Assembly: GCA_051362555.1 (NCBI GenBank)
Contig: CM120649.1
Location: 434,001-498,000 of the forward strand
DNA length: 64,000 nt
Source: Lingula anatina
Lineage: Eukaryota; Animalia; Brachiopoda
Direction of reading: 5' to 3'
Shown: positions 4,517-62,538 of the stretch, one piece after another
How positions within the stretch are numbered: position 1 is the stretch's first letter
How the letters are laid out: the number at the start of each line of letters is the position of its first letter
Notes under the pieces: model-generated
What the model was told of the DNA's origin: nothing
The model's database searches: none
What the model saw: only the letters and a program-made list of their open reading frames with translations
Position numbers and translations under genes: made by a program

Positions 4517-4520
4517 ATAA

Positions 4521-5928
4521 ACACAATATAAGAAAAACGGATTGGCCAATTGTAATTATACTCACAGGAGTGGTCAATCTTACTAAAACGCAGGTTGAGT
4601 TCGAAAATCAGCATAATCGGGCCATTATTTTAGAAGTTATACTGTTTTTTTCACATTTCCTCAGATTCAATTCTTAAGCATGTTAACAGTCTCATTATTT
4701 AACTAATAAGATGCCTAAAAGTGTTTGTTTGATATTTCCTGCATCTTTACAACATTGTTAGTTGATTATGTAAAAAACATGGTAAACTTGTTATCATGTA
4801 TTGTGTAATAAAGTGTCAAAAATGGAAATAAACTCATATCATTGCAGTTTGTCAGATTCAATCATCCACTATGTTCAGAATCTCAGAATGGAGGAAATTG
4901 GACATTTAACACTGTTCTATTGATACTTTTCCCATTTCATCAATTTTTTTAGTTGGTCAAATAAAAATGGCAGTAAACTGTTAATTTTGTTTTATGTTAA
5001 AAAAGTGTTAAAAATGGAAATAAACCCATTTCAGAACAGTGCTGTCTTGTTCAGCATATATGCAACACCATAAACACGATAAGTGAAAAACTGTATTACA
5101 TTTTGACTTGAAACTTACAGTACTGATGAATATTCATAATACGCCGGTTAAGTTCGAAAATCAGCATGATCGGGTAATTTTTAGGGAAGTTATGCTTTTT
5201 TTTTCACTTTTTTCAGCATATATGCAACACCGTAAACACGATAAGTGAAAAACTGTATTACATTTTGACTTGAAACTTACAGAACTGATGAATATTCATA
5301 ATTCGCCGGTCAAGTTCGAAAATCAGCATGATCGGGTAATTTTTAGGGAAGTTATGCTTTTTTTTCCACTTTTTTCAGCATATATGCAACACCGTAAACA
5401 CAATATAAGAAAAACAGATTGGCCAATTGTCATTTTACTCACAGGAGTGGTCAATCTTGCTAAAATGCAGGTTGAGTTCAAAAATCAGTATAATCGGGCC
5501 ATTATTTTAGGAGTTATGCTGTTTTTTCACAATTCCACAGATTCAATTCTTAGGCATGTTAACAGTCTCATAATTGAACTAATAAGAAATGTAAAAGTGT
5601 TTGTTTGATATTTCCTGCATCTTTACAAAATTTTTAGCTGATTACATAAAAATGATGGTAAACTTGTTATCGTGTATTGTGTAATAAAGTGTCAAAAATG
5701 GAAATAAACTCATATCATTGCAGTTTGTCAGATGCATTCATCCACTATGTTCAGAATCTCAGAATGGAGGAAGTTGGACATTTAACACTGTTCTATTGAT
5801 ACTTTTCCCATCTCATCAATTTTCTTCATTGGTCATATAAAAATGGCAGTAAACTGTTTATTTTGTTTTATGTTAAAATAGTGTTAAAAATGGAAATAAA
5901 CCCATTTCAGAACAGTGCTGTCTTGTTT
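4521..5928 (+). repeat. ~530-bp block duplicated at 876-bp offset (4521-5050 / 5397-5928)
   Basis: AACACAATATAAGAAAAAC(G/A)GATTGGCC ... GAACAGTGCTGTCTTGTT is present twice with few differences. Confidence 0.9.
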
Positions 5929-5933
5929 ACATT

Positions 5934-7480
5934 TTGGCATTTTCAATATGTGACTTTTAAGTTCCATGGGCCTGAAGACTTTTGCTAGTCACATTTTCTG
6001 AATAACCATGATACTAATATTTTATAATTAAAAATTGATGGTCATTATGCTGCAAAACATTATGTAATGTTGCATCAAAATTTGAAGAAACCCCTATTTT
6101 GGGCACTGCTCCCATGATGACCATTTAAGGAAAATCATGTCAATTACTGTTCTCAAACTTGCAGGAAAGAAACATGGGTCTAAAATACAGCTTCAGTAGA
6201 CATTGCAGTCTGTTTGGTAAATTTTTCTGGCAATTAAACAGTTTTTTGTGAAAATTTAATTTTTTACTTATTGGCATTTCCAAGGTGTGACTTAGAACCT
6301 CCACGGGCTTGAAGACCCATGCTAGTCACATTTTCTTAAAATCCATGACAGGTATCATTTATTATGAAAAATGGATGGTCATTATGCTGTAAAACATTAT
6401 GTAATATTGCATCAAAATTTGAAGAAACCCCTATTTTGGGCACTGCTCCCATGATGACCATTTAAGGAAAGTCATGTCACTTACTGTTCTCAAACTTACA
6501 GGAAAGAAACATGGGACTAAAATACAGCTTCAGTAGGCAATGCAGTCTGTTTGGTAAATTTTTCTGGTAGTTAAGCAGTTTTTTTGTGAAAATGTAATTT
6601 TTCACATATTGGCATTTTCAATGTATGACTTAGAACCTCCACGGGCTTGAAGACCCATGCTAGTCACATTTTCTGAAAATTCATGACACATATATTTTAT
6701 TATTAAAAATCGATGGTCATTATGCCGCTAAGCATTATGTAATGTTGCATCAAAATAGAAGAAAACACAATTTTGGGTGCTGCTGCCTTGATGACCATTA
6801 TGGGAAAACTGTGTTACTTATGACTGTCAAACTTTCAAAAAAGAAACACAGGACTAAAATGCAGCCTGAGTTGGAAAAGCAGTCTAATTGGCTTCTTTTT
6901 CTGGAAGCTATACATTTTAGTGTAATATTCATTATCTTTTTGGCATATTCATTGTGGGACTCAGAGCTCCCATGGACATGAAGCCGAATGGTAATCATAT
7001 TTTCTACATGTCCATCCTATTTATAGTCAATAAACAAAAATTGGTGATAATTATTCTCTAATTTATTATGTAATGTTACATCAAAATTGACAACAATCTT
7101 TTTGCACTGCTACTGCAAACATTATGAAAAGAAAACTGTGCTACTTATTATCATTTTTAACTTACAAGTACGATTTTTAGGATTGGCCTTCAGCTCATAT
7201 GAGAAAAGCAGCTCTATTGGATTATCATTTTTATTGAATTTATGCATTCTTTGTGAAATTTTCATTTTTCTCATTCTGGCACTTTCTAAGTATAAACTTG
7301 AACTCCGATGGGCCTGAAGCCTTATGCTTTTAATTTCGTCTGTGTTACCTGTTGTGCATAAGTTGATGTTGACTGTGCAGTTAAACATAATGTATTATTG
7401 CATCAGGATTGGTAGTCTCCTATTTTGGGCATTATGGTTTTGTGCTTTTCTTAGGGTGTGACTTATGGGCCGAAAGACCT
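5934..7480 (+). repeat. Diverged tandem satellite, ~337-bp unit x4-5
   Basis: TTGGCA(T/C)TT..A.TGTGACTT..A.CTCC..GGGC.TGAAG anchors at 5934, 6271, 6609, 6940 and 7277. CATTATGTAAT.TTGCATCAAAAT recurs in each unit. Confidence 0.85.
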
Positions 7481-20600: not shown

Positions 20601-23600
20601 GAAATTACATGTGGACAGATTAAACCCATTGAACATCATATATTTAAATACCTAATTGTATAATCAATTTGTTTCTTTGCTGATGCAGGTATAACTTTTT
20701 ATAACTGGAGGAATGTATTTTTTTCATATGACCTCATATCTAATGCATAGGGAAAGTTAGTCTTATTTAAGACAATCTACAGTAGAGCCAGGTTGAATGG
20801 GCCTGGTGTTTAGTGACAGATCTTAGCCTGATAACCCAGTCCAAAGTGGTTCTTGTCTGAACAGGCTGTTGTGACAGACCATTGCTTGAAACAGAGAGGA
20901 ATTTGTTTAGAGAAATTTGGACCAAGAGGGTACTGTGCCTAAAGTTTGGTTGCCTAGATAGGGTCTTGTTTAGCAAATAATGAATGATTGTAGATGCCAG
21001 TTATGGATGAACTCTTACTTAGGGCTATTACCCCCAGTGGGGGGAAGGAAGCTTATAAGATCCCTCCATTTGTCTGGGTGCTGAACTTTTGTCTTAAGAT
21101 GTCTGCAACTTTAGCCAAGTCTCTTGCAATCTGCCTCTAGGCCATGGATTTTGTTTGTGTTCAGTTGCAGAACATTCAACAATGATTATTTCTTATTATG
21201 CATGTTATACATTTAATATTGTATACAGTGTCTTGGACCTCATTCCCATAAATTTTAGATAGATCTATCCCTGTGGGGAGTCTCACTAGATTACTGTCAG
21301 CTTAGCCGGCTTAAGCGTCTGTCCCGCCTACTAAAAGCTGTAAGGGGGTAATTAACTATGGTGCGCGCTCGGCTGACTGCAATTTAGCGTGAACCACCAG
21401 GGAGTTAGGTCGATCTAAATCTAAATCTCTGGATTGATTTAAATCCCTGGGAATGCACCCTTAGTTTCCAGTATCTCACAGTTTCAGGGGCGTGTCATTT
21501 TTCAAATTGATGTTCTTGGTGTTTGACAAATATGTAAATGTTAATATTCCAGCTGTAAATATTTCTTGTTGATTGTAATTAATTGGGTATAACAGTCTCA
21601 TGTAAAAGTTCCAGCCTTTGCCTCTCTCTAAGCACATACTTTCTACCAAAGGTGTTTTCTTTGGCTGTGAAACTTTTTGACTGAAGTTTTTGTAACAAAT
21701 TTGATAAACTCTCACAATAATGGATAAGTTGTGTAACACAACTGTCTAATTTATTGCGTTTTCTATTATTCTGAAACTGGCAGAATATTGGTCAGGGTTT
21801 TGCAGTTTATATTAAGTGTTAACAACAAGTTGCCTCCCCAGAAATATTATTGTTTTGTTTGGGTAGTAAGATTTTATTTACCTTGAAAGATACAAGTGCA
21901 ATGTACAAATATGTCATGGCATTCATGGTAAAGTTTATGCTCCCCCCCCCCCCCAAAAAAAAAAAAATAAAATAAGTAAGTGAATAAAAAGTGAATTTGA
22001 AATTTAAGTTCCTGAATCAGCCACTCTCTTACCCCCTCCCCCTGTATCTGTAAAGTAACTATACCTGTAAGCTTAAACATTCTTATGTCTTCACCTGTGA
22101 CCCTCTCAGAGCTTAACATACTTCTCCAAAGCTGACACATTGAAGAAAAATCAAGAAATGCCATCAAACTTGAAGACTTTGGAAGTAAACATGCCAGTTA
22201 AGATCCATCATGTACTTGTGACCTGTTTATTTCAATGAGATGACCATGGGTAGTATATGCTGAGTTAAGTACAAAATAAAATGAAGAAATTCCTGGCATG
22301 AAATGCTGGGAAAATTCCTGGCAATAACAGGCTTTAGGATACACAGGTCAGGTTAACAGGAAAACATCTGCGGGGCGTGTCTGTTTTTTTTTTTTTTTTC
22401 CCCCTTGGATCTACTGACCTTAAGTAACGTGGGCTGAGGGTGATCAACATTGAGCTAATGTTGCCTGGGTAGAATTCTGGGAAATTTCCTGGAAAAATTG
22501 ACAACACGTGTGGAATACTGCATGCAGCATAAACTGAGCATGTCTTTTTTACTTCTGAATTTCATGAACAAAATTGAGAGCAAAACTTAGTAAGAATTAA
22601 GGATATATCATACAGTGTGATTGTGCATGTGTGTGTGTATTGAATGAATAACTGAGCTTATTTTCTCCCTAAATACTTGGAAACAACCTAAGTATATACA
22701 CGTCAACTCTGTTCCTTATAAAGAGTCCAGTTAGATAATAAAATTGTGTCACTCTTCTACTTCAGGAGGCCGTAATGTGACCATGTCGCTGCAGAGTCGT
22801 ACTGGTCACACTAACATGTCTGCGGTGGTGGGATTCCTGGTGTTCCAACAGTTCTGGTACTGGTTCCCGTTGACCCACTTCTTGGCCCTGGCCTTCACCC
22901 CTACTGCCATCATTGGACTGAACAAAGACCTTAAGGTGGGTTGGTGGTATGGGGGGTGGTCACTCTACACATGTGGAGACTACCTCATCATCTAGAATTG
23001 ATATTTTGCTTACTGTTTTTATGATTGATAGGAGTATAAGATTCGATTTGTATAAATTATGCTATGATTTTGTTGTAGTTGCTGTTATTTTTCTTCTTTT
23101 ATTATTATTGATAGAAATAGTAAAATAATGAAATATAATTTTGATGAAAAATGAAAAAAATATTACAGTATACATGTATATGTAGAAGCATTAAAAATTT
23201 ATGACACATGGGCACTAGCTGCATGAAAACTCTTTCAATGACAGTTGAAAGTTAGAAAAGATGGGTACAACAGAACCAGCTTTTGTAACTTAATTCTTTT
23301 GAAAAGAAGCATCCAGATTTATTTTCACCATTTTTTTGGTATACTTCAGATGCCCAAGTGCCAGTTCCGCAGTAATGCCAAGCCATCAACCTACGCCTAC
23401 CCTCCGCCACTAGAGGAGAAGAAAGACAAGAAGGGGGAGAAAGTCGAGACAGCCGTACTCAGTATCACAGCCAAACAGAAGAAGAAAGAAGCTGATAAGA
23501 AGAAAGAAGAAGGAGGGGAGAAAATGGAGGTGGTACGTGTAGACATCCTAAATGTGGTACTTGATTTCTGAAAAATTTAAAATTCAAGCCGTAAAATGGA

Positions 23601-47613: not shown

Positions 47614-50031
47614 CTATGTATGTTTGTAAGCAACATTTGTTGGCTGAAATGCTACAAACACGGGGTCAGTTGCCGCGTCAACGGCGTCTGCAGTCACCAC
47701 CTCCACCTCGTGTGTGGGCTGTGCAAAGAGCTGATAGAATGCATGCATGTCCTGATCGTCAGTAACGTGGTGGTCGGCTGCACTGTCATGCTGTGCATTC
47801 TTATGATCTTGATGGCCAATGCTTCCTTTCAAATATGTGACACCAATGCCTTGATTGGGCACTATTTTGGAGAGGTTACTGGTATGATGTGTAAAACCCT
47901 TTGTGATTAAGTGTTTAGATTTGTCCAGATCAACATAAAGACACTTCGTCTGATAAGTGTTCCCCCTGCTTTCATAGTTCAACTGGGACCCCCTTGTTGA
48001 TGAAGTGTTGGCAACACCCTTGTTATATTGTTTCCTACTCCTGTTTAATTTGGTCCCACGATTTCTCAAAAGTATTTTATCCTTGTTCTTTTCGTGCATC
48101 AGACTTATGTGGCGTTTCATATTATGCTTGCTATTCGTCAATTTGCCACACTGTGGGCATTCATGTTGAATTCCCGAGTGAATCTCCACCAGATGGCGGC
48201 GTAGGTTTTGTGCTCTTTTAAATGCCCTTCCGCAAAATTCACACGTCAATGGAGCCTCACCCGTGTGAATTCTTTCGTGTTGCACTTTGTCTACTTTTGA
48301 GCTGAATATCTTTTCACAGTACTGACATGCATGTTTTCCTGTTGCTAGGTTACGATGCTTTGTTACATGTGCACGATATGCAGACTCACGATCAAAATGT
48401 TTTCCACAGAAGTCACATAGCAATGAACGTTTTTTATGCACCCTTTTTACATGTTGTTCAAGGGATCTTGGATTGTTAAAAACTTTCTGACACTCATCAC
48501 ATCTATGCTCACCAAAAGGTCCATGATGAATGATTTGATGAGTCTTTAACCCATAAAGAGTTGTGTAAATTTTATCACACTGAACACACTTGAATTCTTT
48601 CCTTTCTGCGTGGCTTTCCAAATGTTCCCTGACCTTGGCCTTGCACTGAAAAACCAGGTCACATAGTGGACACCTTAATTCGCTGTCAGAATGAGCTCTG
48701 CTGTGTTTCTGAAGTTCAACCTCTGTCAAGAACTTCCTGTCACACCTATCACAATCACATTGCTTCAAGTCACACCTGTCACAATCAAATTGCTTTAAAT
48801 CCTCTGATTGTAAATTTTTTAACTGTGTACAGTCCAATTTGCAGCTTTGTGCTGACAAATTAGATTTGGTGGTCTTTCTCTTTGTTTTTTTCCTCGTGTT
48901 TACTCTTGTCCCTCCTTGGGAATATTTAACTGAAGTTTTTCTTTTCCGATTCTGGTTGGGTTTTCTTGTCTGGATCTTGACAGTGGTGTCATTTTTATTT
49001 TGATTTGCCAGTGCTGGTTGTCTTTTTTTAACCTGTCTACTTTTTCTGTGGGTCCTAACATTCCTATCTAAATAGACACACTTTGTTTTATTATTGTCTC
49101 TAGAGTCTAATTCATGTTCTGTTTTTAGTTCTCCATCTTCGCTTTCATGGCCATTTCCAAAGCTGTCTTTTTCTACAGATTCAAAATTAAGTTCATTTTC
49201 ATCATCCAGCAACTCTCTTTTGATTCCCAGCTCACTGTCTTCGTCCTGTTCGCTATTTCCAAAAGTTTCTTTTACTGCACAATGAGATGGTTTCCCAAGT
49301 TCAGAGTTATCACCAAAAATTTTGTTTACTGATGTTTGTTTTTCAGAGTGCCCATTCTCTCTTTCACCTGTGTCTGCTTTTCCATCAATTTTCACTTCAG
49401 TCAGTTCTTTACAAAATTCTGCTCTTTCACTCTGCGTCATTATAGCATTATGATCTTTGTTTTTCCCATCAAAACCTGTTTCTCCACCCTCGCCATCCCT
49501 TGAGACAACATCAGCTAAAGGCTCTGAGAATGTCCTGCATGGGATGCTAAATTTGTAGTTCTCCAGTTGACACAGATTTTGTGAGCACACAGTTAACAGG
49601 TAATGTTTGTAGCTCTGTGCAATCTCCTGACAAATCTGTAGGTAAGCTGCCTTCTGGTCATTATCAAGTCCCTTTAAGCTGATCACCTTGAAGAACAGAT
49701 ATATAAAAGCATCCTGGGACAGATGAACCTCCTTGTCCACCATCTTAATGTGATCTTCTTTAATGGGTAAACCATAATCTGCCAAGATACATTCCATTTT
49801 ATTGATGCTGCAGTCCAAGTCTCCACTGTCTACAACCACATGGCTTTTATGTTTACCAATTCCACAATTACTCTTGAGATTTAATCTCTTTTGACCTTGG
49901 CCTTGACCTGAGAGGTCAAGGTCACCCACAGATATGTTGGTGTCATTGGACTCTGATGTAGTAGTTTTTACTGCTGAAGGGTGTGTTTGGAACTCTGCAT
50001 GATTATCTTGGCCTGGATCTTCACCCTAGGA

Positions 50032-50721: not shown

Positions 50722-51093
50722 CCTAAATAATATCTGAAATTAGATCATTTATTTGTTTATTTTATTTGTTCGTTTGTTTGTTTGTTTGTTTAATCAATTG
50801 TTTAATTGTTTATTTAGTAGTGGTACCATGCTACTGGTATGGCAGATGACAAGCGTAATGAGGTCCTTTTCGCACCGTTTTTGACAGGTAGTCAAACCAT
50901 GCTGTAATTACGCCAAGGGAGAGGCGGCGGGGCGCTCCCTCCCGTAAGTGCGTTTCTAACTATTTGGCTTTGGCCCAATCAAAATGAACCAGGTTAACTG
51001 GGAGTGTTGAGTGCAGGGGTTCTTACCAAGCTATTGATGTGTCTATCTGTCAAGATGGACCAATACCGAGAAGCCCTAATAAATAATTAAGGC

Positions 51094-51145
<52 letters not shown>

Positions 51146-51180
51146 GGCACGATGTAATGTTCACTGTTAGTAGATCATGT

Positions 51181-51319
51181 TGTAGTGCCAGGGACAGGTA
51201 GGACCGGCCGGGTAGCTTAGTAGGTAAGAGCACTCGCCCTGTAACAGTGTAAGCGAGGGGTCCCGGTTCGATTCCTGGTCTGGTCGGTGATTTTTCTGCA
51301 CTCACCCCAAATCGCTACA
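51181..51319 (+). mobile_element. Solo LTR containing a tRNA-like sequence (Helenus-like TRIM)
   Basis: TGTAG...CTACA termini with a 4-bp TSD ATGT (51177-51180, 51320-51323). Internal cloverleaf at 51206-51285 with A box TAGCTTAGTAGG and B box GGTTCGATTCC. Confidence 0.75.
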
Positions 51320-51440
51320 ATGTCAACGTTAAGAGCATACTGGTAGTGCTAAATCATTACGATGTAGCGATATATATATAAAAGGAACTGGATGCAGTGT
51401 TTTCAATATCCCGCAATCTCCTGAAATACGTCGAGACAGG

Positions 51441-51719
51441 TAAAGTATTCACTGTGTCTACTTACTGAATTGGTGAGTGATCGCTGTCTATTGTTATGCT
51501 CTTTGATAGAATTGTAGATGGATCGTCAATCTAGACACGTCCGGTACGGAGTGCAGAATATTAGACAATGATCTGTGACAGTTGTGATGTCACAATAGTG
51601 ACGATCTCCTGCAGGGGGCGTGCTGTCCCCACCTGGCCTAGCTCACTCACCTGAGGTGGCCTATCTTGGCACATGAAGAGCAGACCAGGTGGAGGAAGGA
51701 AAAAACTCCGATCACAACA
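51441..51719 (-). repeat. 3' LTR (279 bp)
   Basis: Direct repeat of 62059-62337; reads TGTTG...ACTTTA on the - strand. Confidence 0.97.
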
Positions 51720-51733
51720 TTCCCCCCACTTTT
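51720..51733 (-). other. Polypurine tract
   Basis: AAAAGTGGGGGGAA immediately before the 3' LTR on the - strand. Confidence 0.9.
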
Positions 51734-52496
51734 ATTAAAAAGAGCCGAAAAAGGTAAAGTTTTTTCCCAGTAATAGCAATACATGTTTAAACATGTAAAA
51801 ATATTTTTCAATAACAATGGCTTCCAGCCTCGATCAGACTGACGTTAATGCTAACGACATCACCGAGGTGATAGTCTGACGAGAAAAAATATAGGATTAA
51901 ACTGTGACAACTGTTGATTCAGCAGTTAGTCACATCACTGATACAGTGATAGTCTATCCACAAAAATAAATACTGGAAAGCCAAAAAATGAAATCAAAAA
52001 TTTGGGGACATTCCTAGGATTTGGCGGAAGATCAGAATACTAAATAAATAATAAAATGGAAATAAATAAACACTTGTGCTGGTGCACTGTACCTAGTACA
52101 GAGTAATAAACTGTGCTGCGGTGCTGTATTGCGTCCTGCAATATAGTGCTTCTGAAATACACATATTTGTGTACATAACTTGACAAGTGATAGATATATA
52201 TAAGTGCTACAGGTGCCATTGTGCTCTTGTGCATCTTTGTATCTGTAAATGATATATAAATAAATAATGAATGATAATCAAATAAAGAAATGAATAAGGT
52301 GAAAATGGGCCCACTGATGGTAACTTTCATAGCTCCGATGATCTCCCGGATCAGGAAGAGGAGAGGGGCTTCAGTGAAATTTGAATTTAGTAAGAACTAA
52401 GAAGAAATAGTTTTCATAATTTTCTAGAAATTTTTAAATTGTCCAAAAAAGAAGTAATTTTGTCATATTTTCAATTTTTGTTTTCCAAATTCCTGG

Positions 52497-54788
52497 TTAC
52501 TCCCTTTTATACAAGGAAGTACCATTTTGTGTAGTGATTTTTAAAATATGAGAGACATCCACCCCTCTGTGCCCCGCCAATATCTCTGCCGTTTCATAGA
52601 GAATAAAGGGTGTTGAATGGCCCCCCTTTTTGCGAGCGAAATAGGGGGCATCCGACTCCAAAAGAAGTTTGGAGTCGGGCACCGCCCTAAGTGCTGCCAA
52701 CTGGTGTTTATTAAAGGTGGCAGCAACCCGGGTGAAACCGAAAAAGGTATTTGGTTGCTGCCTTCCCCAAATTTCGAGAAGGGCCTTAGTGCCTGTAAAG
52801 CAGTGAAAATGGATCCTCTGGGACTGCGGAACGCCACACAGTTTCAGATGAAACAAAAGAGATCTTATGGCGAACTCACAGTCTCCAGAGTCTCCCCTCA
52901 CTCCCCTACAGTGCACAACCAGGACATGCCTGGCCTCTAGAAAAGGCAGAAGTCTGTGGAGCAACTCAACCTGATCCTGCCATTTAGACATGGCTTCAGT
53001 GTGGTCGAAACCTACCTCGCCAAAAGCTGTTACTAGCGGCATCTTAACCAACTCTGAGAAAGCCTTAATTGCCTGGTCCAGATTGCCCTGAGAAAGCTTG
53101 CCGGCTAGCCTCGGGTGAAAACCAATAGCTACATACTCGATCCCAGACAGAGTGGAAAGATACCCCTTAGTAGGATATGTCTTGGGATCGCAGTAAATAG
53201 CTACAGTTCCCACCAACTCTACCTCTTTCCCAGAGCAAACAGGAAGCAAACCCTTAAGACCCTCTAACTTGCCAGAGTATGGAAGACCAAAGGCAGCCAG
53301 GGTTCTATCTAGATGATAGTGACTATCGAAAGCTTGCCTCCCTGACTTACTTTGTTCCCCCGCCTCCAGACAAGTTTCTGGCCTGGTGAACCCTTGAATC
53401 CACAACGACCTCTGCTGCTCCGTTATAGAAGCAGACAGCTGTGTCAGGACTCTCCAATCCACCAGGACCCCGACAGAGTTAGCTGGGTATAAGGTGAAAC
53501 GCACTGGGACCGGTTTATTGAGAAATTTACAGAAATTTTCCATGGCAGTAATTTGGATTGAAGAAAAAGTGCCATGGGCTAAATTTAATTTATCTGGAAG
53601 AGCCGAAATGAACTGGTATAAAGTGTCCAGTTCTTTTTTAAAACCAAAAATGAAGAAAGTAAGCATCTCCAGTGCTTTAACCATTACACCCAAGATGTTG
53701 GGCTCAGGATTGGCGCGCTCATCAAAGATAGACGGGACATGCAGCCCCAGCGAATGCTGCCTGAGCATCTGCTCATTAAGTTTCACCCCACACCCAGGGA
53801 CCACACATTGCATCTCGGAGTGATCTTTCCTGGCCCTTTTGGGGTCAGGTCCAACCACTCCGGATGGTGTTTGGCTAGACCTTTTCGGTTCCCTGGTTGT
53901 AGGATGAGACAGCTCCGCTGACTCAACATGCCCATCCACCCCAGACTTTGCAGCAACCAACCCCTTGCCAGGTTTCTTACCACGCCTCCACCAAGGAGCT
54001 CTCTTCTTCCCCTTACGCTTACTGCCCCCCATGGGCTCAGATGGTACAGGCCCAGGAACAGGAACTTGGATCCCTGTTGGAGCAGCAGCTTCAGGGAGGT
54101 GTGAACCTGAAGAAGAGGAGATAGAAAAGTTGAAAGGGATGGCGGTATTTTGCAGCAGTGATGCGCCTGGCATAGGAGTTTCCGGAGCAGCTGGAGGTTT
54201 CACGCTGGATTTGGCCTCCCTTGGTACTCCAAGAAGTCTGTCCTCCTCAATGGAGTCCAGACTGGAGTTGGGGTCGATGTTACTTGACCCCACACCAAGT
54301 TCAGCCTCATCCAATTGCGATTCCACCTCCATAGGCTGGACCGTGCCACTCCCATCGACCACCTGGGTTATGAGTGTAATGTTTGGGTCCTTCCCAAGCC
54401 TGAAATCACGAGTTTTTTGTCCATCGTACTCCACGGAGGGAGCAGATTTCAAAACTCGTGCAGGAGGGGTGAAATTTTTGGGAAGGCGCCAAACATTCTT
54501 CTCAATCCAGTTTTTAGATGCAAGCCCACTAGATTGTAGTTGGTAGGCCACTTGCTGCAACCATGCCAGAGACATGGCATACCTACCGGGAGCACGAAGC
54601 TCCTTTTTATAAATGGTAGCCATCCCAGCCACCAGTGTTTTAAAGTAGCTGCTGTGATCTTCCCCAGGCAGAGCCTGGGCCAAATCCTGGACAAACTGGG
54701 TTCCAGGGACATCTATGGGTGACTCATGCTGTAATCTGAGTGAAGTCTCCTTCACAACAGGTGCTACTTCCGTGATAGTATTGGCCAT
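52497..54788 (-). CDS. Retrotransposon ORF3, 763 aa: low-complexity/basic region, C2H2-like motif, C-terminal TatD-family metallo-nuclease
   Basis: TatD motifs DSHYHLD, GFHP, GEVGFD, VVHCR, HFHCF and ESDAPY, ending in TTQNG.SLY. Also CVVPGC-X11-H-X4-H and a basic KRKGKKRAPWWRRGKK segment. Confidence 0.9.
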   Translation of the reverse strand: MANTITEVAPVVKETSLRLQHESPIDVPGTQFVQDLAQALPGEDHSSYFKTLVAGMATIYKKELRAPGRYAMSLAWLQQVAYQLQSSGLASKNWIEKNVWRLPKNFTPPARVLKSAPSVEYDGQKTRDFRLGKDPNITLITQVVDGSGTVQPMEVESQLDEAELGVGSSNIDPNSSLDSIEEDRLLGVPREAKSSVKPPAAPETPMPGASLLQNTAIPFNFSISSSSGSHLPEAAAPTGIQVPVPGPVPSEPMGGSKRKGKKRAPWWRRGKKPGKGLVAAKSGVDGHVESAELSHPTTREPKRSSQTPSGVVGPDPKRARKDHSEMQCVVPGCGVKLNEQMLRQHSLGLHVPSIFDERANPEPNILGVMVKALEMLTFFIFGFKKELDTLYQFISALPDKLNLAHGTFSSIQITAMENFCKFLNKPVPVRFTLYPANSVGVLVDWRVLTQLSASITEQQRSLWIQGFTRPETCLEAGEQSKSGRQAFDSHYHLDRTLAAFGLPYSGKLEGLKGLLPVCSGKEVELVGTVAIYCDPKTYPTKGYLSTLSGIEYVAIGFHPRLAGKLSQGNLDQAIKAFSELVKMPLVTAFGEVGFDHTEAMSKWQDQVELLHRLLPFLEARHVLVVHCRGVRGDSGDCEFAIRSLLFHLKLCGVPQSQRIHFHCFTGTKALLEIWGRQQPNTFFGFTRVAATFNKHQLAALRAVPDSKLLLESDAPYFARKKGGHSTPFILYETAEILAGHRGVDVSHILKITTQNGTSLYKRE

Positions 54789-54815
54789 ATCTGTAATAAC
54801 AATGAAAAATAAATA

Positions 54816-57800
54816 TTAGATTTGACATTTTACACACTTGTATTTATCAATGTTTATCGCTTCGGTGGAAGTGACATTGATGCAGGATCCATGATACCAT
54901 TCATGACAGTAGTCACATTGAATCATGAATCTGCCCTGGTAAGGCTCCCTGCAAATACAGTATGGTGTCAAATCTTCTTCTTCACTGTCACTCGAGTGCT
55001 GAAATTGTTCATCAGAAGCTAAATATTCTGTAATCCATGAGGGTACATTTCTGTCCCTACAGGGCATGAGCCTGTCATGGTTAATTACAAAGATTGCATT
55101 TTTTAGCTTCACTCGATACAGATAGCCAGATAATTTCTTTACAATGATGGCGGGTCCTTTCCATGGTGAACACAATTTTCGTGATTTGCCTTTAGTTGTT
55201 GCTGTATCCAAAACATAAACCAAATCCTTTTCAGCATAAGGTCTAAGCAGGATTTTAAGGTCATAGTCACGTTTCATGCGTTTTGAGGTTGTTTTTAAAT
55301 TGGCTCTTGCTGTAATATGAGCTAATTTCATTTTTTGTACTAACTTTGAAATGTATTCACCATAGTCAGTTTCTTTTGATTTCAGATTTGGGAACATAAT
55401 TTGGGCTGGAGTACTGACCTCCCTCCCAAGCATGAGCATATTAGGGGTATACCCCGCACTTCTGTTTACAGAAGCACGCAACGCGCCTGCAATTTGCTGG
55501 ACATATTTATCCCATTCACCCTGATTTTTACCCAAAAAACACCGTACGGCATCCATCAGGGTACGATTGAACCTTTCAACCTGTCCATTTGCAGACGGTC
55601 GGTACGGAGTAGTGCGTGATTTGTGTATATGTAAGGCCCTACACAAATCCCCGAACAATTGACTTTCAAAATTCCGTCCCTGATCAGAAAAAAGTTGATA
55701 GGGATAACCGAACCTAGAAAAGAAACAGTCAATTGCTGCTTTCGCGGTCACTTCGGCCGTTTGAGAAGGCAACGGTACGCACTCTACCCACTTTGTGAAT
55801 TGATCAACCATGACCAAACAATGCTCATTACCTTTTGCTGTTTTAGGTAGCGGTCCCAAGAAATCAATATGAACCCGTTCCATCGGAGCACCTGCAACAT
55901 ATTCAGTCAGAGGGACTCTTCCGTAACACCCTTTTTTCTTATTTTTATTACAGATGTCACAACTCAGGACATAATTGGCTATTTCTTTGCTCATATGGGG
56001 CCAGTAGAATTTTTCTTTGATTTTTGTTTTTGTTCTAGCCACTCCTTGGTGACCAGCTGAAGGGATATCATGATGTAATTTGAAAACAGAATTTTTTAAT
56101 GATTCTGGGATGACTAATTTTAGATCTTTGCTTTCCTCTTCAGTTTTGAAAATGACTCCATGATGTAATTTGAATAATTCTTTATTCAGCCAGTAAGTTT
56201 TGGAGATTGGGCTTGATCGGAAGAGTGCACCCTGATCTGGGGTATTCCCTTTGTACAACCACTCTCGTAAAATGTTAAGCTCAGGGTCTTTTGCTTGTTC
56301 AGTTTTTAATTTTTCCATAGAAAAACCCCAACACTGAGGAATATCCGGGTTTGGATTTGACCTCGCCTCCGGACCACACGCATTTATTTCTACATGAGAT
56401 TCCTCAGGTTGCAGAGCGACATCGGTAGAGAGGGCTACAATTTTTTCTAGGAGACAGTAGAAAAGATGTTCCGGACCCGTTTCTCGTCCCAGATTGACTG
56501 TATTTAATGAGGATGTTAGATCGCGTTGACTTTTTGTAGATTTACCAGTAAATTTGGATGACAATTTTTTCTTTTCTGTTAAATTGACCGCTTCGTCGAC
56601 GTCACCGAAAAAACTCCCCCAATTTTCATGGGCTCTGACGCAATAACTACATCCTCCGCAAGGTAAATTTTCCGGCTTTATTCCCGCAATATATTCGTTA
56701 CACGGTGCCAAATTGTCGGGTATTCGAGACAACGAATCAGCATTGCTATGCTTAGCTCCGGCACGATGTTGTACGATCATATTGAATTGCGAAAGCTCTT
56801 CTATCCACCTCGCGAGTTGACCTTGAGGCTCTTTAAACCTCAGTAACCACGTCAGACTTGAATGATCGGTGCGAACGGTAAATATTCGGCCCAAAAGATA
56901 ATACCTGAATTGTCTGGTAAATCTCACGATAGCCAAAAGCTCTTTTCGCGTGGTGCAATAATTCTTTTGTTCGGGAGTTAACGCGTAGCTGCCGTACGCA
57001 ATTACTTTCTCCTCGCCGTTTTGCACTTGTATTAACTCTGCACCAATCGAGTGATTTGAAGCGTCGGTATCTAAAATAAACGGATCGTTTGCGTTTGGTA
57101 ACGATAAGACTGGTGGTGTAGTCAATGCCGTTTTGAGCGCTTCGAAAGATTGAGCTTGATCTGGTCCCCATTCAAAGGCATGTTTACCTTTAATTTTGCT
57201 CAGAGGATGGGATATTTCCGCAAAATTTTTTATAAAAGTCCGGTGATAATTTGCCAATCCTAAGAACCTTTCAACGTCCTTAGAACAAGTGGGTTGTGGC
57301 CAAGAAGTTACAACTTCAATATCCTTAGGGCTCATTTTCATGGTGTTATTAGAAACAATCCGCCCCAGGAATTCAACTTCTTTTTGAAACAAAACGCACT
57401 TTTTTGGCTTTAATTTGATACCGAACTGGCGAAATCTTCCCAAAGCCTCTTTCAAATTTTCTAAATGATTTTCAAAGGACTTCCCCATTACCAAAATGTC
57501 GTCCAAAAATGCCAAAACTGTTTTCCATGTCAACCCCTTCATAAGTAAATTGACTACTCGGGAGAAAGTCGCAGGAGCATTGGTCAAGCCGAAACCCATA
57601 CGGACATGTTCGAATAATCCGTATTTCGTGATAAAAGCTGTTTTATGCCTATCTTCGGGTTTAATTTTGACTTGCCAATACGCAGAATTGGCATCTAACT
57701 TCGAAAACCAGATGTTTCCCGACAGAGTATCTTTGCAATCTTCCATTAATGGTAATGGATACGTGTCTTTGACCGTGACATTGTTCAAGGCGCGATAATC

Positions 57801-59558
57801 GATGCACCATCGGACGGAACCGTCACGTTTTCTAATTAAAACTGGTGCTGATGCCCACTCTGACGTAGACTCTTGGATGACCCCGGCTTTTAACATTTTT
57901 GTTAATAATGCCTCCTCTTCTTGAATAAAACACGCGGGAGTTCGCCGCATACGCGTTTTAAGAGGTTTGGCATTCCCGGTATCGATACCATGCTCAATGG
58001 CACTAAACCGACCAAGGTCATACTCGTCTCTAGCAAAAACATCCTGAAATTCAGATAGAACATTCTTTAATTTTTCACTCTGAATTTTGTTTAAATTCCT
58101 CTTTGATGTTTCATAAACCACTTTTACATGGTTAGGAATTTCTGATGATTTGCTAGCGACGCGTCCAGAAAAATCTTGTCCTGCGTGAACGTCACCAGCG
58201 ATTTGTTTAAAATTCCGCACCTGAGGTGACCCCTTTACAGGTGACTTGAAAATTTCGGTGTTAATTTTTTCTTCAACGAACCTCTTTCCGGCAGATGGGG
58301 CACTTAAAGGGCCCTGAGTACTTCCACCCACCTTCAGAAGTTGTTTACTTTTTATGTCATTTTTAAATCGGGCACTTGTTTTAGGGATATTCTCTAAATT
58401 AGGGGAATTAACACCACAAACCCCAGTAGAATTTAATCCCACAAGCTTTGTCATATTTGGGTGCACACCTGTTCTAGGGATTTTACTAGTTCTAGGAGTG
58501 TAAATTGAATGCTCCACTGGTAAATTGAATCCCACAAGTGTGTTTGTAGAATCCCTACCGGTTCTAGGGACGGCTGATTTTACACGAGTAATTTCAGGTA
58601 ATCCCACCAGTAGATCGGTAGTCATTGTCTCATCAGTGGTACTGACAACACGAGCGCTGGATTGGTCAATTTTAGTAGACCCCCCTCCCACTCGATGTAA
58701 ACCGAAGTGCGAAACAGGGTTTTCTAAAATTTCCGAAACTTCGCAAGCCGTAGCGACCACATGACCCCTTTTTAATTTTTTAAATTGATCTGATGGATTT
58801 AAGAGGCACACGACTGGTTTTGATTTTTCGGACAAGACAGTTCTCGGTATTAGTAGTCCCTCTTCTTCTTTACCCTCGACGACGTATTTTTCTAACTTTT
58901 CGTCGATCTCGCACGTTATCCTTAGTGCTGAATTTGGGGGTACTACTACATTTCGTGAAACGCTAACCCGAGCTATTTTAATGTCTTGTGCACGCGACTC
59001 CGTTTGCTGCATAGGTATGTCGCGCCCTTCTATTTGAATGTAACCCAAATTACAATGCACGCTCGCATTAAACTGGGCAATTAGATCGTGGCCTAACAAA
59101 AAATCGTCATGTATCGGCGCTACTAGAACAGATTCTTTGATTTTGAAACGATCTAGTTCGATGGAAATTGGCTCACAAACACGAGTTTCGATTTGTATAT
59201 CCCCTGCCGCAAGAGTAAGACTGTAATATTTCTTGAGCGATGGTTTATTTTTTATTTGCTCGAATATTTTTTCAGCCATGACAGAAACTTGCGCACCGGT
59301 GTCAACTTTGGCCATTACATGTACACCCGCCACTACCAAAGGAACGAATGAAGATCGAAAAACCCCAAGTTCATCAATTACAGGATTTTGACCACATTCT
59401 AACTCGGAATGATGAGGACGATGCAATGTTTCCATTACGGGGATAGTATTGTCAACGGTTCGTGTTTGAGACAATGAAGTCGCGATGGTTTCACCCGTTT
59501 TGTGACCGGTTTCAGTCGGGTTTCCAAGGTTACGGTCATTTCCCTTGGACCCTTCTAG
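54816..59558 (-). CDS. Gypsy Pol: protease, RT, RNase H, integrase, PHD finger (probably entered by -1 frameshift from gag)
   Basis: VDTGA; WASAPVL, CIDYRALN, MGFGL.NAPATF, FLDD; LDTDAS, ELLA, TDH; H..AGH..CDIC; IDF, SDQG, ERFN; WKGP; YCICREPY...MIQCDYCHEWYHGSC...CVKC. The frame is open from the slippery site to 54816. Confidence 0.96.
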   Translation of the reverse strand, partial: LEGSKGNDRNLGNPTETGHKTGETIATSLSQTRTVDNTIPVMETLHRPHHSELECGQNPVIDELGVFRSSFVPLVVAGVHVMAKVDTGAQVSVMAEKIFEQIKNKPSLKKYYSLTLAAGDIQIETRVCEPISIELDRFKIKESVLVAPIHDDFLLGHDLIAQFNASVHCNLGYIQIEGRDIPMQQTESRAQDIKIARVSVSRNVVVPPNSALRITCEIDEKLEKYVVEGKEEEGLLIPRTVLSEKSKPVVCLLNPSDQFKKLKRGHVVATACEVSEILENPVSHFGLHRVGGGSTKIDQSSARVVSTTDETMTTDLLVGLPEITRVKSAVPRTGRDSTNTLVGFNLPVEHSIYTPRTSKIPRTGVHPNMTKLVGLNSTGVCGVNSPNLENIPKTSARFKNDIKSKQLLKVGGSTQGPLSAPSAGKRFVEEKINTEIFKSPVKGSPQVRNFKQIAGDVHAGQDFSGRVASKSSEIPNHVKVVYETSKRNLNKIQSEKLKNVLSEFQDVFARDEYDLGRFSAIEHGIDTGNAKPLKTRMRRTPACFIQEEEALLTKMLKAGVIQESTSEWASAPVLIRKRDGSVRWCIDYRALNNVTVKDTYPLPLMEDCKDTLSGNIWFSKLDANSAYWQVKIKPEDRHKTAFITKYGLFEHVRMGFGLTNAPATFSRVVNLLMKGLTWKTVLAFLDDILVMGKSFENHLENLKEALGRFRQFGIKLKPKKCVLFQKEVEFLGRIVSNNTMKMSPKDIEVVTSWPQPTCSKDVERFLGLANYHRTFIKNFAEISHPLSKIKGKHAFEWGPDQAQSFEALKTALTTPPVLSLPNANDPFILDTDASNHSIGAELIQVQNGEEKVIAYGSYALTPEQKNYCTTRKELLAIVRFTRQFRYYLLGRIFTVRTDHSSLTWLLRFKEPQGQLARWIEELSQFNMIVQHRAGAKHSNADSLSRIPDNLAPCNEYIAGIKPENLPCGGCSYCVRAHENWGSFFGDVDEAVNLTEKKKLSSKFTGKSTKSQRDLTSSLNTVNLGRETGPEHLFYCLLEKIVALSTDVALQPEESHVEINACGPEARSNPNPDIPQCWGFSMEKLKTEQAKDPELNILREWLYKGNTPDQGALFRSSPISKTYWLNKELFKLHHGVIFKTEEESKDLKLVIPESLKNSVFKLHHDIPSAGHQGVARTKTKIKEKFYWPHMSKEIANYVLSCDICNKNKKKGCYGRVPLTEYVAGAPMERVHIDFLGPLPKTAKGNEHCLVMVDQFTKWVECVPLPSQTAEVTAKAAIDCFFSRFGYPYQLFSDQGRNFESQLFGDLCRALHIHKSRTTPYRPSANGQVERFNRTLMDAVRCFLGKNQGEWDKYVQQIAGALRASVNRSAGYTPNMLMLGREVSTPAQIMFPNLKSKETDYGEYISKLVQKMKLAHITARANLKTTSKRMKRDYDLKILLRPYAEKDLVYVLDTATTKGKSRKLCSPWKGPAIIVKKLSGYLYRVKLKNAIFVINHDRLMPCRDRNVPSWITEYLASDEQFQHSSDSEEEDLTPYCICREPYQGRFMIQCDYCHEWYHGSCINVTSTEAINIDKYKCVKCQI

Positions 59559-59564
59559 TTTAAA
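59503..59564 (-). promoter_or_regulatory. Programmed -1 ribosomal frameshift signal (U UUA AAC plus predicted H-type pseudoknot)
   Basis: Heptamer at 59564-59558, directly before the gag TAG. Stem 1 TCCAAGG/CCTTGGA (59549-59543 / 59529-59523). Stem 2 TGACCG/CGGTCA (59538-59533 / 59508-59503). pol is in the -1 frame. Confidence 0.85.
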
Positions 59565-61453
59565 TGAGTTGGATTCGTATTATCAGCCCGTGCTTGTTGT
59601 TTTTCAGCATTTTTTCTTTGTAAGAATTTTTTATATTTTAGGCAATTTCGTTTAAAATGGCCCTTTCCTTTACAGAAAAAACACACAGGTGTTGTTTTAG
59701 GTGTGAATTTCCGGACCAAGCGTTCAACCATAGATTCCAACTCTGCCATTGAATTAAACTGAATTGTATTCAATTTAGGTGACTGGCTAACGCGTTTTTC
59801 CACGATGGATTCAACAAGTTGTTCTACATTTTCAGTTGGAAATTGCCGATTTTCATCAGCTGTTAGATTTAGAGAACTAATTTGTAATTCATCACGATTT
59901 TTTCGTGTTGGTTTTTGAATATGTGATGATTTGTAGACTTGCTGATAATCCACCATGTAGGTCATTGCCTCGCTGATGCTTGCTGGATGTTTTAAACGAG
60001 TGTAACGCCCGGCATCCTGATCAATGCAGCCCTGACAAAATTTAGATATTGTTTCTTTTGTTCTAAAGGATTCTGATTCATCAGGATAAGCATCTTTGGC
60101 CAATAACAAAACACGGCACAGCCATTTATTCAAGGTTTCGTTGGAAGATTGAACTGCTGTGTGAAATGCCAAACGAGCTGAATCGGGATGTTTTTTAATT
60201 CCGAATACTGAATCCATTTCACTCATTAAGGCTGAATACGTCATGTGTTTATTTGCTCTGAGATTGGTGTTATACAAAGCCAAAGCCTCGCCTTCTAGAC
60301 TCCATAAAAGGTAATCTAGACACTCATTTTCCGACCACTCTTTCACTTGGCGATAACTGTCAAATCTGTTTTTAAAAGACTCCCAGTTTTCACAATTTCC
60401 GTCAAAAGACAATTTTTTGGGTAAATCACTGGGGTCCCCTCTGTCCTTTTTATTTTTAGGACGTACTGTTTTTGGTACTCTAAAATATTCATTTTCACTT
60501 TCATCGCTTTCGGGAAGAAGTGGTTCGTCGCGGAAAACGGGAGACGAAATTCTATGGCGCGTATGATGTTTTTCTATTGAACTCGGCCGGTAATCATGTT
60601 TACGTTCGACTGTATCAGCAACACTATGCTCAACGTTAAGTTGCCGCCGTCCGGGCGTAGGAACATGAATCTGTGGCAGATCATAATTCGAAACAACCCG
60701 ATGGACAGACGGAGCTGGTCGCCGACTACTTTCCCTACCAGTCGGTAAAGAAGTAACAGTCTCGGAATTTATGACACGGCCTGGAGGCTTTATATGCGCG
60801 GAAGAAGTTGTATGATCTTTGTTATCGACACGCAGCCTCTCAATAGGCAGAGCAAAAAGATCGTATTCAGGGTCTAAAGTGGCTGGCTGCGAAGTGAAAG
60901 TTCTGGGGTCCAAAGCTGAGTGAGAACGTAATTTTGTTTTTGGTTTGATAAATTGCTGCTCAGTTGTTGATTTTGAACGAGCTTTTAATTTTAAATATGT
61001 TGGTGGAGAATAAGTTGCAGCTTTTTGAATGTTTTTACTGCGTGAAATTTTTTCTTGTTGATTAATTTCCTCACCCACTTTGAGAATTCTTTCAAATTCT
61101 GCCCTATAGCTTTCAGCAGCCGCTCTTCCTTCATTATGAATGTAGGAAGTCACTTTAGAAGTTTTCATTTTGGGTTTTTGACTTTTTTCGGTGGATAATG
61201 TGCTAGTATCGAGGTCACCCACGTCGACTTCAGATCCGATTTCACTTCTGTGAGTACTGCCAAAAGAGAGATTTTCAATTACATTTGATCCAAGATTGGA
61301 TCCACAAATCTCCAAAATGTTGGATCTGGTCACGGGGATCCCATGTTCTCTAGCATATATTATCCTTTCTGCACGTTTAGGACCTATACCCGGCAGCGTA
61401 ACGAGCTCATCGTAAGTAGCACGATTGACTGGCAACCTTGATGCACTCGCCAT
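59555..61453 (-). CDS. Gypsy Gag, 632 aa, with N-terminal helix-hairpin-helix and C-terminal CCHC knuckle
   Basis: VNRATYDELVTLPGIGPKRAERII (HhH); FDG...WESFKNRF...W...L.GEA...Q..NETL (capsid-like); CFFCKGKGHFKRNC. Confidence 0.92.
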   Translation of the reverse strand: MASASRLPVNRATYDELVTLPGIGPKRAERIIYAREHGIPVTRSNILEICGSNLGSNVIENLSFGSTHRSEIGSEVDVGDLDTSTLSTEKSQKPKMKTSKVTSYIHNEGRAAAESYRAEFERILKVGEEINQQEKISRSKNIQKAATYSPPTYLKLKARSKSTTEQQFIKPKTKLRSHSALDPRTFTSQPATLDPEYDLFALPIERLRVDNKDHTTSSAHIKPPGRVINSETVTSLPTGRESSRRPAPSVHRVVSNYDLPQIHVPTPGRRQLNVEHSVADTVERKHDYRPSSIEKHHTRHRISSPVFRDEPLLPESDESENEYFRVPKTVRPKNKKDRGDPSDLPKKLSFDGNCENWESFKNRFDSYRQVKEWSENECLDYLLWSLEGEALALYNTNLRANKHMTYSALMSEMDSVFGIKKHPDSARLAFHTAVQSSNETLNKWLCRVLLLAKDAYPDESESFRTKETISKFCQGCIDQDAGRYTRLKHPASISEAMTYMVDYQQVYKSSHIQKPTRKNRDELQISSLNLTADENRQFPTENVEQLVESIVEKRVSQSPKLNTIQFNSMAELESMVERLVRKFTPKTTPVCFFCKGKGHFKRNCLKYKKFLQRKNAEKQQARADNTNPTHLN

Positions 61454-62045
61454 TGTACATTTGAAAGCGAAAAATAAATTGATTCAAAATAATTTCACTT
61501 ATCAAAGCACAATACACTACCAAGCTTATAGTGAAATTCGCTATAAATAGATTCCTAAAACGTACAATAAGTTCAAATTTGGAAAACAAAGACTTTGGTA
61601 CACAACGCAATAAATTGAAATCAGACAGAAATTCTATTCAGAATTCCGCCTAAAATACAAAAGAATAAATAACAACAAAACAGAAGTCAGTATTTTATTC
61701 TTTAAATAAACTAAATAAACAAAGAAACCAAAGTATTACGTGTGCACCTCAGTCTTGGAAAATTTCGGTAGAGATCGTAACAATGCACAGGATAATGAGA
61801 CCAACGTCTCCTTTATATCACCGACCTTTTCACGTAAGTACTGAAAAATAACGTAGATGTGCAGGAAAATCAGTGTCTCCTGATGCGGTGACCTTTACGA
61901 TCCAAAATTGAAACAACAATTTTGACCGCCGCTCCACCCAATTATTCAAATGGATGTTAGACAAAGGAATTTCCCGCGCAAACTACTTTCAGCTAGATCG
62001 CAGCGAAAACTAAGCTTTAGGCCCGCAAATATACAAGTTACGAAT

Positions 62046-62057
62046 GCCTTGTCGCCA
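62046..62057 (-). other. Primer binding site (tRNA-Ser-like)
   Basis: TGGCGACAAGG begins 1 nt inside the 5' LTR boundary. It is one mismatch from TGGCGACGAGG, the complement of the tRNA-Ser(GCU) 3' end. Confidence 0.75.
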
Positions 62058-62058
62058 A

Positions 62059-62337
62059 TAAAGTATTCACTGTGTCTACTTACTGAATTGGTGAGTGATC
62101 GCTGTCTATTGTTATGCTCTTTGATAGAATTGTAGATGGATCGTCAATCTAGACACGTCCGGTACGGAGTGCAGAATATTAGACAATGATCTGTGACAGT
62201 TGTGATGTCACAATAGTGACGATCTCCTGCAGGGGGCGTGCTGTCCCCACCTGGCCTAGCTCACTCACCTGAGGTGGCCTATCTTGGCACATGAAGAGCA
62301 GACCAGGTGGAGGAAGGAAAAAACTCCGATCACAACA
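62059..62337 (-). repeat. 5' LTR (279 bp)
   Basis: Direct repeat of 51441-51719; followed by the PBS on the - strand. Confidence 0.97.
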
Positions 62338-62427
62338 CAGGACTGGTGTTTCTCCGAAATGATTCATTGTGCAACGATGAAAAAAAACTCGCGATTTACT
62401 ACGCCTTTTGATACATTTTTTTCATAC

Positions 62428-62538
62428 CTCTGTACTTTCCAGAAAATATACCCTTGAAACAAGGCTTCTCAAACTTCGTGCAGTCAGGGAATCGCACTTT
62501 TCAGCTAAAAAAGGCAAACAAAACAAATAGGCCAACAT
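62428..62538 (-). other. Putative first exon of the zinc-finger gene
   Basis: ATG at 62538, 37 open codons, then a GAG|GTATGA donor at 62428/62427, in phase with the acceptor at 50733. Surroundings are CpG-enriched. Confidence 0.5.

Follow-up and report, generated by a model that had tools for sequence, protein, structure and literature searches.

A stretch of 64,000 nucleotides (nt) from the brachiopod Lingula anatina (assembly GCA_051362555.1, contig CM120649.1, positions 434,001 to 498,000; hereafter the window, in whose numbering all positions are given) raises the question of what a TatD nuclease gene is doing inside a Ty3/Gypsy long terminal repeat (LTR) retrotransposon, between pol and the polypurine tract (PPT), where errantiviruses and retroviruses have their envelope (env) gene. 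An earlier note, made from the sequence alone, had proposed that the element captured the nuclease and retained it. We find that the gene, open reading frame 3 (ORF3) of the element, is intact and that it almost certainly belongs to a conserved clade of TatD-bearing Gypsy elements, in which it is inherited together with pol.

A TatD gene in the env position

ORF3 (763 amino acids (aa), 52497..54788, on the minus strand like the whole element) starts 27 nt past the pol stop, and its residues 487–761 (52506..53330) form a TatD nuclease domain of the class II HxH type. The Pfam family TatD_DNase (PF01026) is matched along the full length of its model (E 2.3e-27; score 96.4 bits, with the cut-off at 27) and is the sole Pfam family matched in ORF3. 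An AlphaFold model of residues 330–763 has a mean predicted local distance difference test (pLDDT) score of 87.7, and in a Foldseek comparison of the ORF3 model with the PDB all 15 matches listed down to rank 17 are TatD proteins (best E 3.5e-13). Every motif that the earlier note had read in the protein (HxH, GExGxD, H, HCF and ExD) is present, as D488-x-H490-x-H492, H558-P, G-E591-x-G-x-D595, H626, H662-C-F and E711-x-D713. The ligand set of class II TatD proteins (HxH, E, H, H, E-x-D), a class defined by the HxH motif in the excerpts of PMC10085689, is complete. The same motif excludes a TATDN1-type identity, and the TatD fold led us to reject a DEDDy exonuclease.

Ahead of the nuclease, ORF3 has an N-terminal helical domain (about residues 4–100, 54489..54779; pLDDT about 70–97), a disordered linker (pLDDT below 50) with a basic cluster at residues 257–275 (53964..54020) that is a candidate nuclear localisation signal, and a middle domain (about residues 326–470, 53379..53813) made up of C2H2-like ligands (C328/C333/H345/H350) and helices. 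The middle domain is specific to the element family: all four ligands are invariant across 60 sequences, and its profile matches none of 120 cellular TATDN2 proteins. Fold searches with residues 1–480, in which the middle domain was covered only as part of that stretch, gave nothing significant (best Z 7.1, and no match at Z ≥8 for the N-terminal domain). Three CTD-interacting domains (CID) among the top 30 rows scored Z 7.0, 6.3 and 6.0, which is within the chance range for helical bundles, and ESM Atlas returned scores of at most 0.80 for the middle and N-terminal domains. No env family match, signal peptide or clear transmembrane anchor was seen in ORF3, and its highest 19-residue hydropathy (1.93) is located within the folded middle domain. 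A membrane fusion glycoprotein like the env of errantiviruses was rejected on this hydropathy and on TatD being the only Pfam match.

The surrounding element is complete, with gag, pol and ORF3 all open. Its 5′ LTR (62059..62337) and 3′ LTR (51441..51719) are each 279 nt long and 100% identical, and comparison of the flanks gives the target-site duplication CCTG (62338..62341 on the 5′ side, 51437..51440 on the 3′ side). The LTRs end in TG...TA rather than the usual TG...CA (62059-62060, 51441-51442). One nucleotide in from the 5′ LTR is a primer binding site (PBS)-like sequence starting TGGCGAC (62040..62057), to which no primer tRNA was matched, and the PPT, AAAAGTGGGGGGAA (51720..51733), adjoins the 3′ LTR. 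Pol (1539 aa, 54816..59435) has protease, reverse transcriptase (RT), RNase H and integrase in the order that fits Ty3/Gypsy, followed by a C-terminal PHD finger (54959-54825); the D-E-D-H-D residues of its RNase H are intact. Gag (632 aa, 59555..61453) has an N-terminal helix-hairpin-helix, a PNMA-like capsid region and a CCHC knuckle. By its paired LTRs and duplication, its gag-pol order and the PBS and PPT beside the LTRs, this is a Ty3/Gypsy LTR retrotransposon. We note that the helix-hairpin-helix, a DNA-binding motif (Pfam HHH, HHH_3; 61453-61320), is unusual for Gag and is found too in four other loci (L113, L123, L019, L025).

A clade that keeps TatD with pol

ORF3 is not a one-off transduction into this copy, an outcome that the earlier note had allowed for. 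A word-indexed protein search returned 21 proteins, 20 of them built like ORF3 and the remaining one a TATDN2 from a shrimp; the closest named relative is a Lingula protein (49% over 434 aa). HMMER gave 155 clusters (50% identity) at E ≤1e-30, and among the 150 listed, 91 have at least 150 residues ahead of TatD, 88 of them with the middle domain. The named carriers, known from protein records alone, are Lingula anatina, Mercenaria mercenaria and Ostrea edulis, and two further clusters have 29 and 52 members scattered in repeat-like fashion across many long contigs. Of 73 metagenome loci, 14 have an integrase or PHD tail that precedes TatD on the same strand. Two permuted contigs (L011, L020), counted beyond these 14, hold both TatD and integrase/PHD, and the remaining loci are mostly short or TATDN2-like cellular genes.

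Many family members come from one metagenome-assembled genome (MAG), G001, labelled Sedimenticola, which contains 122 integrase, 133 RT-RNase H and 24 TatD matches, with only 2 of the 24 bacterial; 14 control genomes gave no RT-RNase H match at all. G001 contains animal LTR elements and is a contaminated MAG. Pol lies upstream of TatD in 14 of its 21 non-bacterial TatD contigs; a fifteenth (L074) has a PHD tail found by tblastn, in five the upstream part is too short, and one is degenerate. For internal comparison we used 120 G001 contigs, 20 with TatD and 100 more with integrase. Among 151 genomes of G001's family, 149 had no match at 1e-25 and one other gave a short domain-only match. IMG/VR yielded no relative among 41 candidates, and the best plasmid and phage matches are below 29% identity. 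A recent bacterial transfer was rejected, the ‘bacterial’ records being animal LTR contigs inside a MAG. In all, more than 100 animal LTR retrotransposon contigs stand in this GTDB-type MAG (L074-L078, L084, L090, L108-L225). Records from Thiodiazotropha MAGs (among P0009, P0055, P0056, P0060-P0062 and P0074) likewise label the family as a bacterial ‘TatD family hydrolase’; such bacterial labels are host contamination that spreads false annotation.

In an integrase tree of 107 rows, each an unbroken match of at least 200 aa, 19 of 20 TatD-bearing integrases, the window's included, fall in one clade (Shimodaira–Hasegawa-like approximate likelihood ratio test 100), as do 15 of 16 in a more careful 28-row tree (100/99). 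A PHD pattern on the pol tail is present in 17 of the 20 TatD-bearing rows against 0 of the 87 others. Between the integrase and TatD trees of 19 elements 7 of 16 splits are common with no conflict at ≥95, and the two sets of distances correlate (Mantel rho 0.60, a value reached in none of 9999 permutations). Of the two, TatD evolves the faster, with a mean identity of 38% against 60% for integrase.

The twentieth TatD-bearing row, L108, sits on a neighbouring integrase branch without PHD. A single TatD origin without loss for all TatD-bearing integrases was rejected by the approximately unbiased test (p 1e-4), in which the tested group was named after the first tree had been seen and some of the rows without TatD are truncated. 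TatD was then either acquired twice from one pool, the second time in the L108 branch, or gained once and lost afterwards; an independent acquisition of the L108-type ORF3 is possible. Two near relatives (L150, L151) lack a start for ORF3 in 1064 and 832 nt, and a close one (L131) has no ORF3 in 3260 nt. The L108 type (L108:7518-9032, L084, L090, L110) is shorter, about 500 aa, with a double zinc finger and VFP in place of CDP; an SCF-type change at the HCF cysteine occurs in four element-clade rows.

Where the domain came from was addressed with TatD trees of 105 and 35 rows that include six bacterial TatDs and leave out eukaryotic TATDN1 and TATDN3. Here the element TatDs form a clade (95/90), sister to a cellular TATDN2-like clade (98/94), and the two together split from the six bacterial sequences (a test against TatD/YcfH/YjjV) at 100/99. 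The phylogeny asked for by the earlier note thus gives an answer for bacterial TatD and TATDN2, with TATDN1 and TATDN3 outside the trees. A C533-x-P535 motif is found in 21 of 21 TATDN2 and 0 of 6 bacterial sequences. The element TatDs, about 30% identical to TATDN2, are not nested among its cellular orthologues, to which long branches may contribute; phmmer matched TATDN3 only at E 3e-4, in a searched set that contained no TATDN2 entry. Since the element clade lies outside the sampled TATDN2 clade and is separate from bacterial TatDs, the capture is old and not a recent copy of the host's gene, and by these trees the donor would be the TATDN2 lineage.

The recipient may have been a gene already in place. 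In the 20 elements without TatD that have a frame of at least 200 aa downstream, a C2H2-like motif stands near the start of the frame in 14, a Baculo_F env in two (L153, L203) and a weak GDSL match in one (L206). The ORF3 position is a general cargo slot among related Gypsy elements of this host. The earlier note had taken ORFs at this position to be normally env-like; this holds for the two Baculo_F relatives, and exceptions (a DEDDy exonuclease) are known from the excerpts of PMC5408684. The middle domain with its four invariant C2H2-like ligands, together with the zinc-finger ORF3s of relatives, suggests that the TATDN2-like domain was fused onto a pre-existing zinc-finger ORF3 of related Gypsy lineages. 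Frames after pol that combine zinc fingers with low complexity were seen in L126, L133, L139, L146, L155, L166, L167, L172, L181, L183, L184, L185, L199 and L200; that of L185 has a BTB domain in addition to C2H2, and that of L196 is perhaps also GDSL/SGNH hydrolase-like.

To gauge selection we took the ratio of nonsynonymous (dN) to synonymous (dS) divergence for 18 TatD pairs, which are not independent. Nine pairs with dS 0.13–3.0 gave dN/dS 0.09–0.22; three with dS ≤0.04 gave 0.33–0.46 on few changes, and six are saturated, among them both that include the window. Among 60 element-clade domains H558, E591, H626 and H662 are present in all 60, D713 in 59, E711 in 58, and H490 and H492 in 56 and 55, the rest being gaps at truncated ends. 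Between the host's own copies 11 of 18 ORF3 variants are synonymous (within the best 40 of 1677 variant rows). By these comparisons the TatD gene is under purifying selection with its active site retained intact, and the neutral evolution that the earlier note had named as an alternative is not what the nine pairs indicate. These results also bear on the idea that ORF3 is a mere passenger, picked up from a host TATDN2 by transduction and of no use to the element. Kinship with TATDN2, and the public annotation of some members as ordinary host or bacterial genes, would suit such an origin, but the position of the element TatDs outside the sampled cellular clade (98/94), their element-specific extra domains, and purifying selection with co-divergence from integrase up to synonymous saturation largely refute it already, and we consider it hardly credible.

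Expression and possible role of ORF3

Directly before ORF3 is a predicted splice acceptor (54791..54819), with a CTAAT branch-like motif over the pol stop, a pyrimidine tract and a CAG two bases ahead of the ORF3 ATG. Of 22 elements with an adjacent frame, 13 have this layout before ORF3, compared with 11 of 208 internal control ATGs; five additional loci without an adjacent ORF3 frame are outside the 22. ORF3 occurs in all three frames relative to pol across elements, which argues against readthrough, and because the acceptor is conserved directly before the ATG, ORF3 probably has its own message. It is thus likely to be expressed from a spliced subgenomic mRNA, like the env of errantiviruses and retroviruses as the excerpts of PMC5408684 describe it, giving a product separate from Gag-Pol. 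The likeness to env extends to the place between pol and PPT and to the acceptor right before the start codon; unlike env, ORF3 lacks an env family match and a clear transmembrane anchor. In run X1, the kind of which is guessed, a contig ends at 54790, the predicted acceptor, and contig depth is higher on the leader and ORF3 than on gag-pol. A spliced message would fit this, but with a single run, no joint listed, and contigs that show neither ends nor levels, it was not used as evidence.

A separate message, the basic cluster, the lack of a clear membrane segment, the zinc-finger-like domain and the kinship with TATDN2 point to a nuclear role on nucleic acid. Among 59 family members, 44 have basic clusters and 2 have strong hydrophobic segments. 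In the excerpts of PMC10711561, human TATDN2 acts on R-loops by degrading their RNA strand, has weak activity on a plain RNA:DNA duplex, and needs E593, E705 and, for binding, its disordered N-terminus; E591 and E711 of ORF3 correspond to the two glutamates by motif. Our tentative reading, which we regard as quite possible, is that ORF3 would be a separately expressed, nuclear accessory nuclease of a young Gypsy element. It would be imported by its basic cluster and bind nucleic acid through the C2H2-like middle domain and disordered linker. There it may remove RNA from R-loops, or trim the 3′ ends of RNA or single-stranded DNA, at sites of element transcription or integration, by two-metal catalysis on H490/H492/E591/H626/H662/D713 in the manner of class II TatD. 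That R-loop RNA is the substrate is speculative, as is the benefit to the element, which might lie in a higher yield of full-length transcript, or in cleaner integration that damages the germ line less.

Several observations weigh against this reading. With ORF3 only sister to TATDN2 at about 30% identity, the substrate preference of the human enzyme need not carry over, and long branches and the absence of eukaryotic TATDN1 and TATDN3 put the placement in the TatD trees at risk. No spliced read or joint into ORF3 was found at about 1–3x RNA depth (at most about 3x on ORF3), and no splice donor matching strict patterns was found in the leader. Stranded runs X12 and X13 are mostly antisense over the element, which is mainly sense only in X15. 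Basic clusters, counted here without a control, are frequent in disordered linkers generally. The window's own gene is in none of the unsaturated dN/dS pairs, and many of the integrase rows scored as lacking PHD are truncated contigs, 63 rows having less than 1.5 kb downstream.

The RNase H residues of pol are intact in 11 of 11 TatD elements. TatD is therefore an addition, and a plain replacement of RNase H was rejected. Plant elements of the Tat lineage of Gypsy, whose name is unrelated to TatD, also carry an additional RNase H; they resemble the present family in having a second nuclease while their own RNase H remains, and differ in that the extra domain is in pol and of the RNase H fold, whereas the TatD ORF3 is a separate gene of another fold. 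The intact RNase H also bears on the alternative that ORF3 acts on the element's complementary DNA (cDNA), as a DNA 3′ exonuclease or apurinic/apyrimidinic (AP) endonuclease that trims 3′ ends, clears RNA remnants or repairs integration gaps. This would agree with the co-inheritance of TatD with pol and with the non-canonical TG...TA ends of the LTRs, and with the excerpts of PMC10085689, where TatD enzymes are generally single-stranded DNA 3′ exonucleases with AP-endonuclease activity and TATDN1 and TATDN3 act as exonucleases on DNA and as AP endonucleases. Yet ORF3 is not a domain of pol but a separate frame preceded by an acceptor, pol retains its RNase H, and close relatives (L150, L151, L131) transpose without ORF3, so that we consider action on cDNA rather unlikely.

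A separately expressed protein would equally suit a factor acting in trans on host defence, one that degrades silencing RNAs (antisense, Piwi-interacting RNA precursors, nascent guide RNA) or nucleic acids sensed by innate immunity. Antisense reads cross the element in two runs, the slot of relatives holds varied cargo (zinc fingers, BTB, GDSL, env), and TatD changes faster than integrase. Pairwise dN/dS, however, gives no sign of positive selection, and the ESM Atlas and fold searches found no significant similarity to a known suppressor; such counter-defence is in our view unlikely. The intact active site of 3′ exonuclease type, and the more than 100 other LTR families in the hosts, would also allow ORF3 to restrict rival retroelements or viruses by breaking down their cDNA or RNA, much as TREX1 does, to the indirect benefit of the element. 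The element's own cDNA would then need protecting, and we hold this restriction to be very unlikely.

Returning to the nuclear R-loop nuclease, a broader version of it is somewhat doubtful: that these elements carry a chromatin-directed R-loop-clearing system, a TATDN2-type nuclease, taken up from beyond the sampled cellular TATDN2 clade and fused to a zinc-finger gene, with the integrase PHD gained on the same branch, in an ancient, undescribed marine-invertebrate Gypsy lineage. This would be the first R-loop resolvase of a mobile element.

Insertion site, related systems and wider meaning

The element lies, in the same orientation, in a host intron (50734..62427, minus strand, GT..AG) that measures 793 nt without it. 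In three of four RNA runs, reads (3, 2 and 1) span a joint from 50733 to 62428 that has GT..AG ends, and a contig from DNA run X3 links both flanks without the element. From the identical LTRs and this empty allele we conclude that the element inserted very recently. The interrupted intron likely belongs to the adjacent C2H2 zinc-finger gene (47614-49797, minus strand; exons near 50733 and 62428), which is expressed in the RNA runs. As the element adds a strong acceptor to an upstream intron in the same orientation, it could disturb splicing of the zinc-finger gene on that allele. In three DNA runs the contig depth summed over the element exceeds that of the upstream flank by a factor of roughly 8 to 100, which is not a copy number and fits many element copies. 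Runs X9 and X10 have contigs in which about 53115 is joined to 60330 (window 53112-60337); internally deleted copies without pol and most of ORF3 are present in the species. About 150 nt from the insertion ARAGORN calls a tRNA-Tyr (51205-51287, plus strand) with very high contig depth, which suggests a tRNA-derived short interspersed nuclear element. Elsewhere the window has tandem arrays at 3843-5821 and 5923-7088 (repeat lengths near 161 and 337 nt) and an inverted pair of 176 nt (1752-1927 / 21242-21417).

Gypsy elements with a nuclease in the env slot are already known. In the excerpts of PMC5408684, restated in those of PMC5718144, the Juno and Vesta elements of bdelloid rotifers carry a DEDDy 3′-5′ exonuclease or a GDSL esterase as ORF3. 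As far as these excerpts go, Juno and Vesta resemble the window element in being of Gypsy type, in having an env-slot enzyme, including a 3′-5′ exonuclease with intact catalytic residues, and in acquiring ORF3 repeatedly. They differ in fold (DEDDy against the TIM-barrel TatD), and, unlike theirs, the TatD ORF3s are multi-domain proteins of 700-1100 aa that co-diverge deeply with integrase under purifying selection between families, occur in several marine invertebrate hosts, and follow a pol that ends in PHD and is without dUTPase. The tests of intragenomic variation in PMC5408684, to the extent excerpted, covered env and GDSL ORFs only and found it mostly neutral. Cellular TATDN2 shares with ORF3 a C-terminal class II HxH TatD with all catalytic residues, the C-x-P motif and a disordered basic N-terminal part; unlike it, ORF3 is a single ORF inside a mobile element, at about 30% identity, with two extra folded domains absent from 120 cellular matches. 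By the title of PMC12709183, Tatdn2 is required in primordial germ cells, and the excerpts of PMC6962438 place a TATDN2-labelled gene within a squid Hox cluster. The main text, as excerpted, of a mollusc LTR survey (PMC6238403; MolGy, C-clade and CsRN1 clades) does not mention an ORF, PHD or nuclease. Our literature searches, with Repbase, GyDB, Dfam and most subscription journals outside their coverage, found no description of TatD in an LTR element, and in its specifics the TatD-bearing Gypsy lineage is apparently undescribed.

The finding corrects annotation in two places: members entered as uncharacterised host genes for Lingula, Mercenaria and Ostrea, and those entered as a bacterial ‘TatD family hydrolase’ in symbiont MAGs, are probably element genes. 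A second 3′-exonuclease fold, unrelated to the first, has been recruited to the Gypsy env slot and retained for very long. The role of non-env ORF3 enzymes thereby becomes testable, as the domain is compact and soluble-looking, its catalytic residues are known and so is the substrate of its human relative. The link between TatD and the integrase PHD finger may in turn offer a handle on chromatin targeting.

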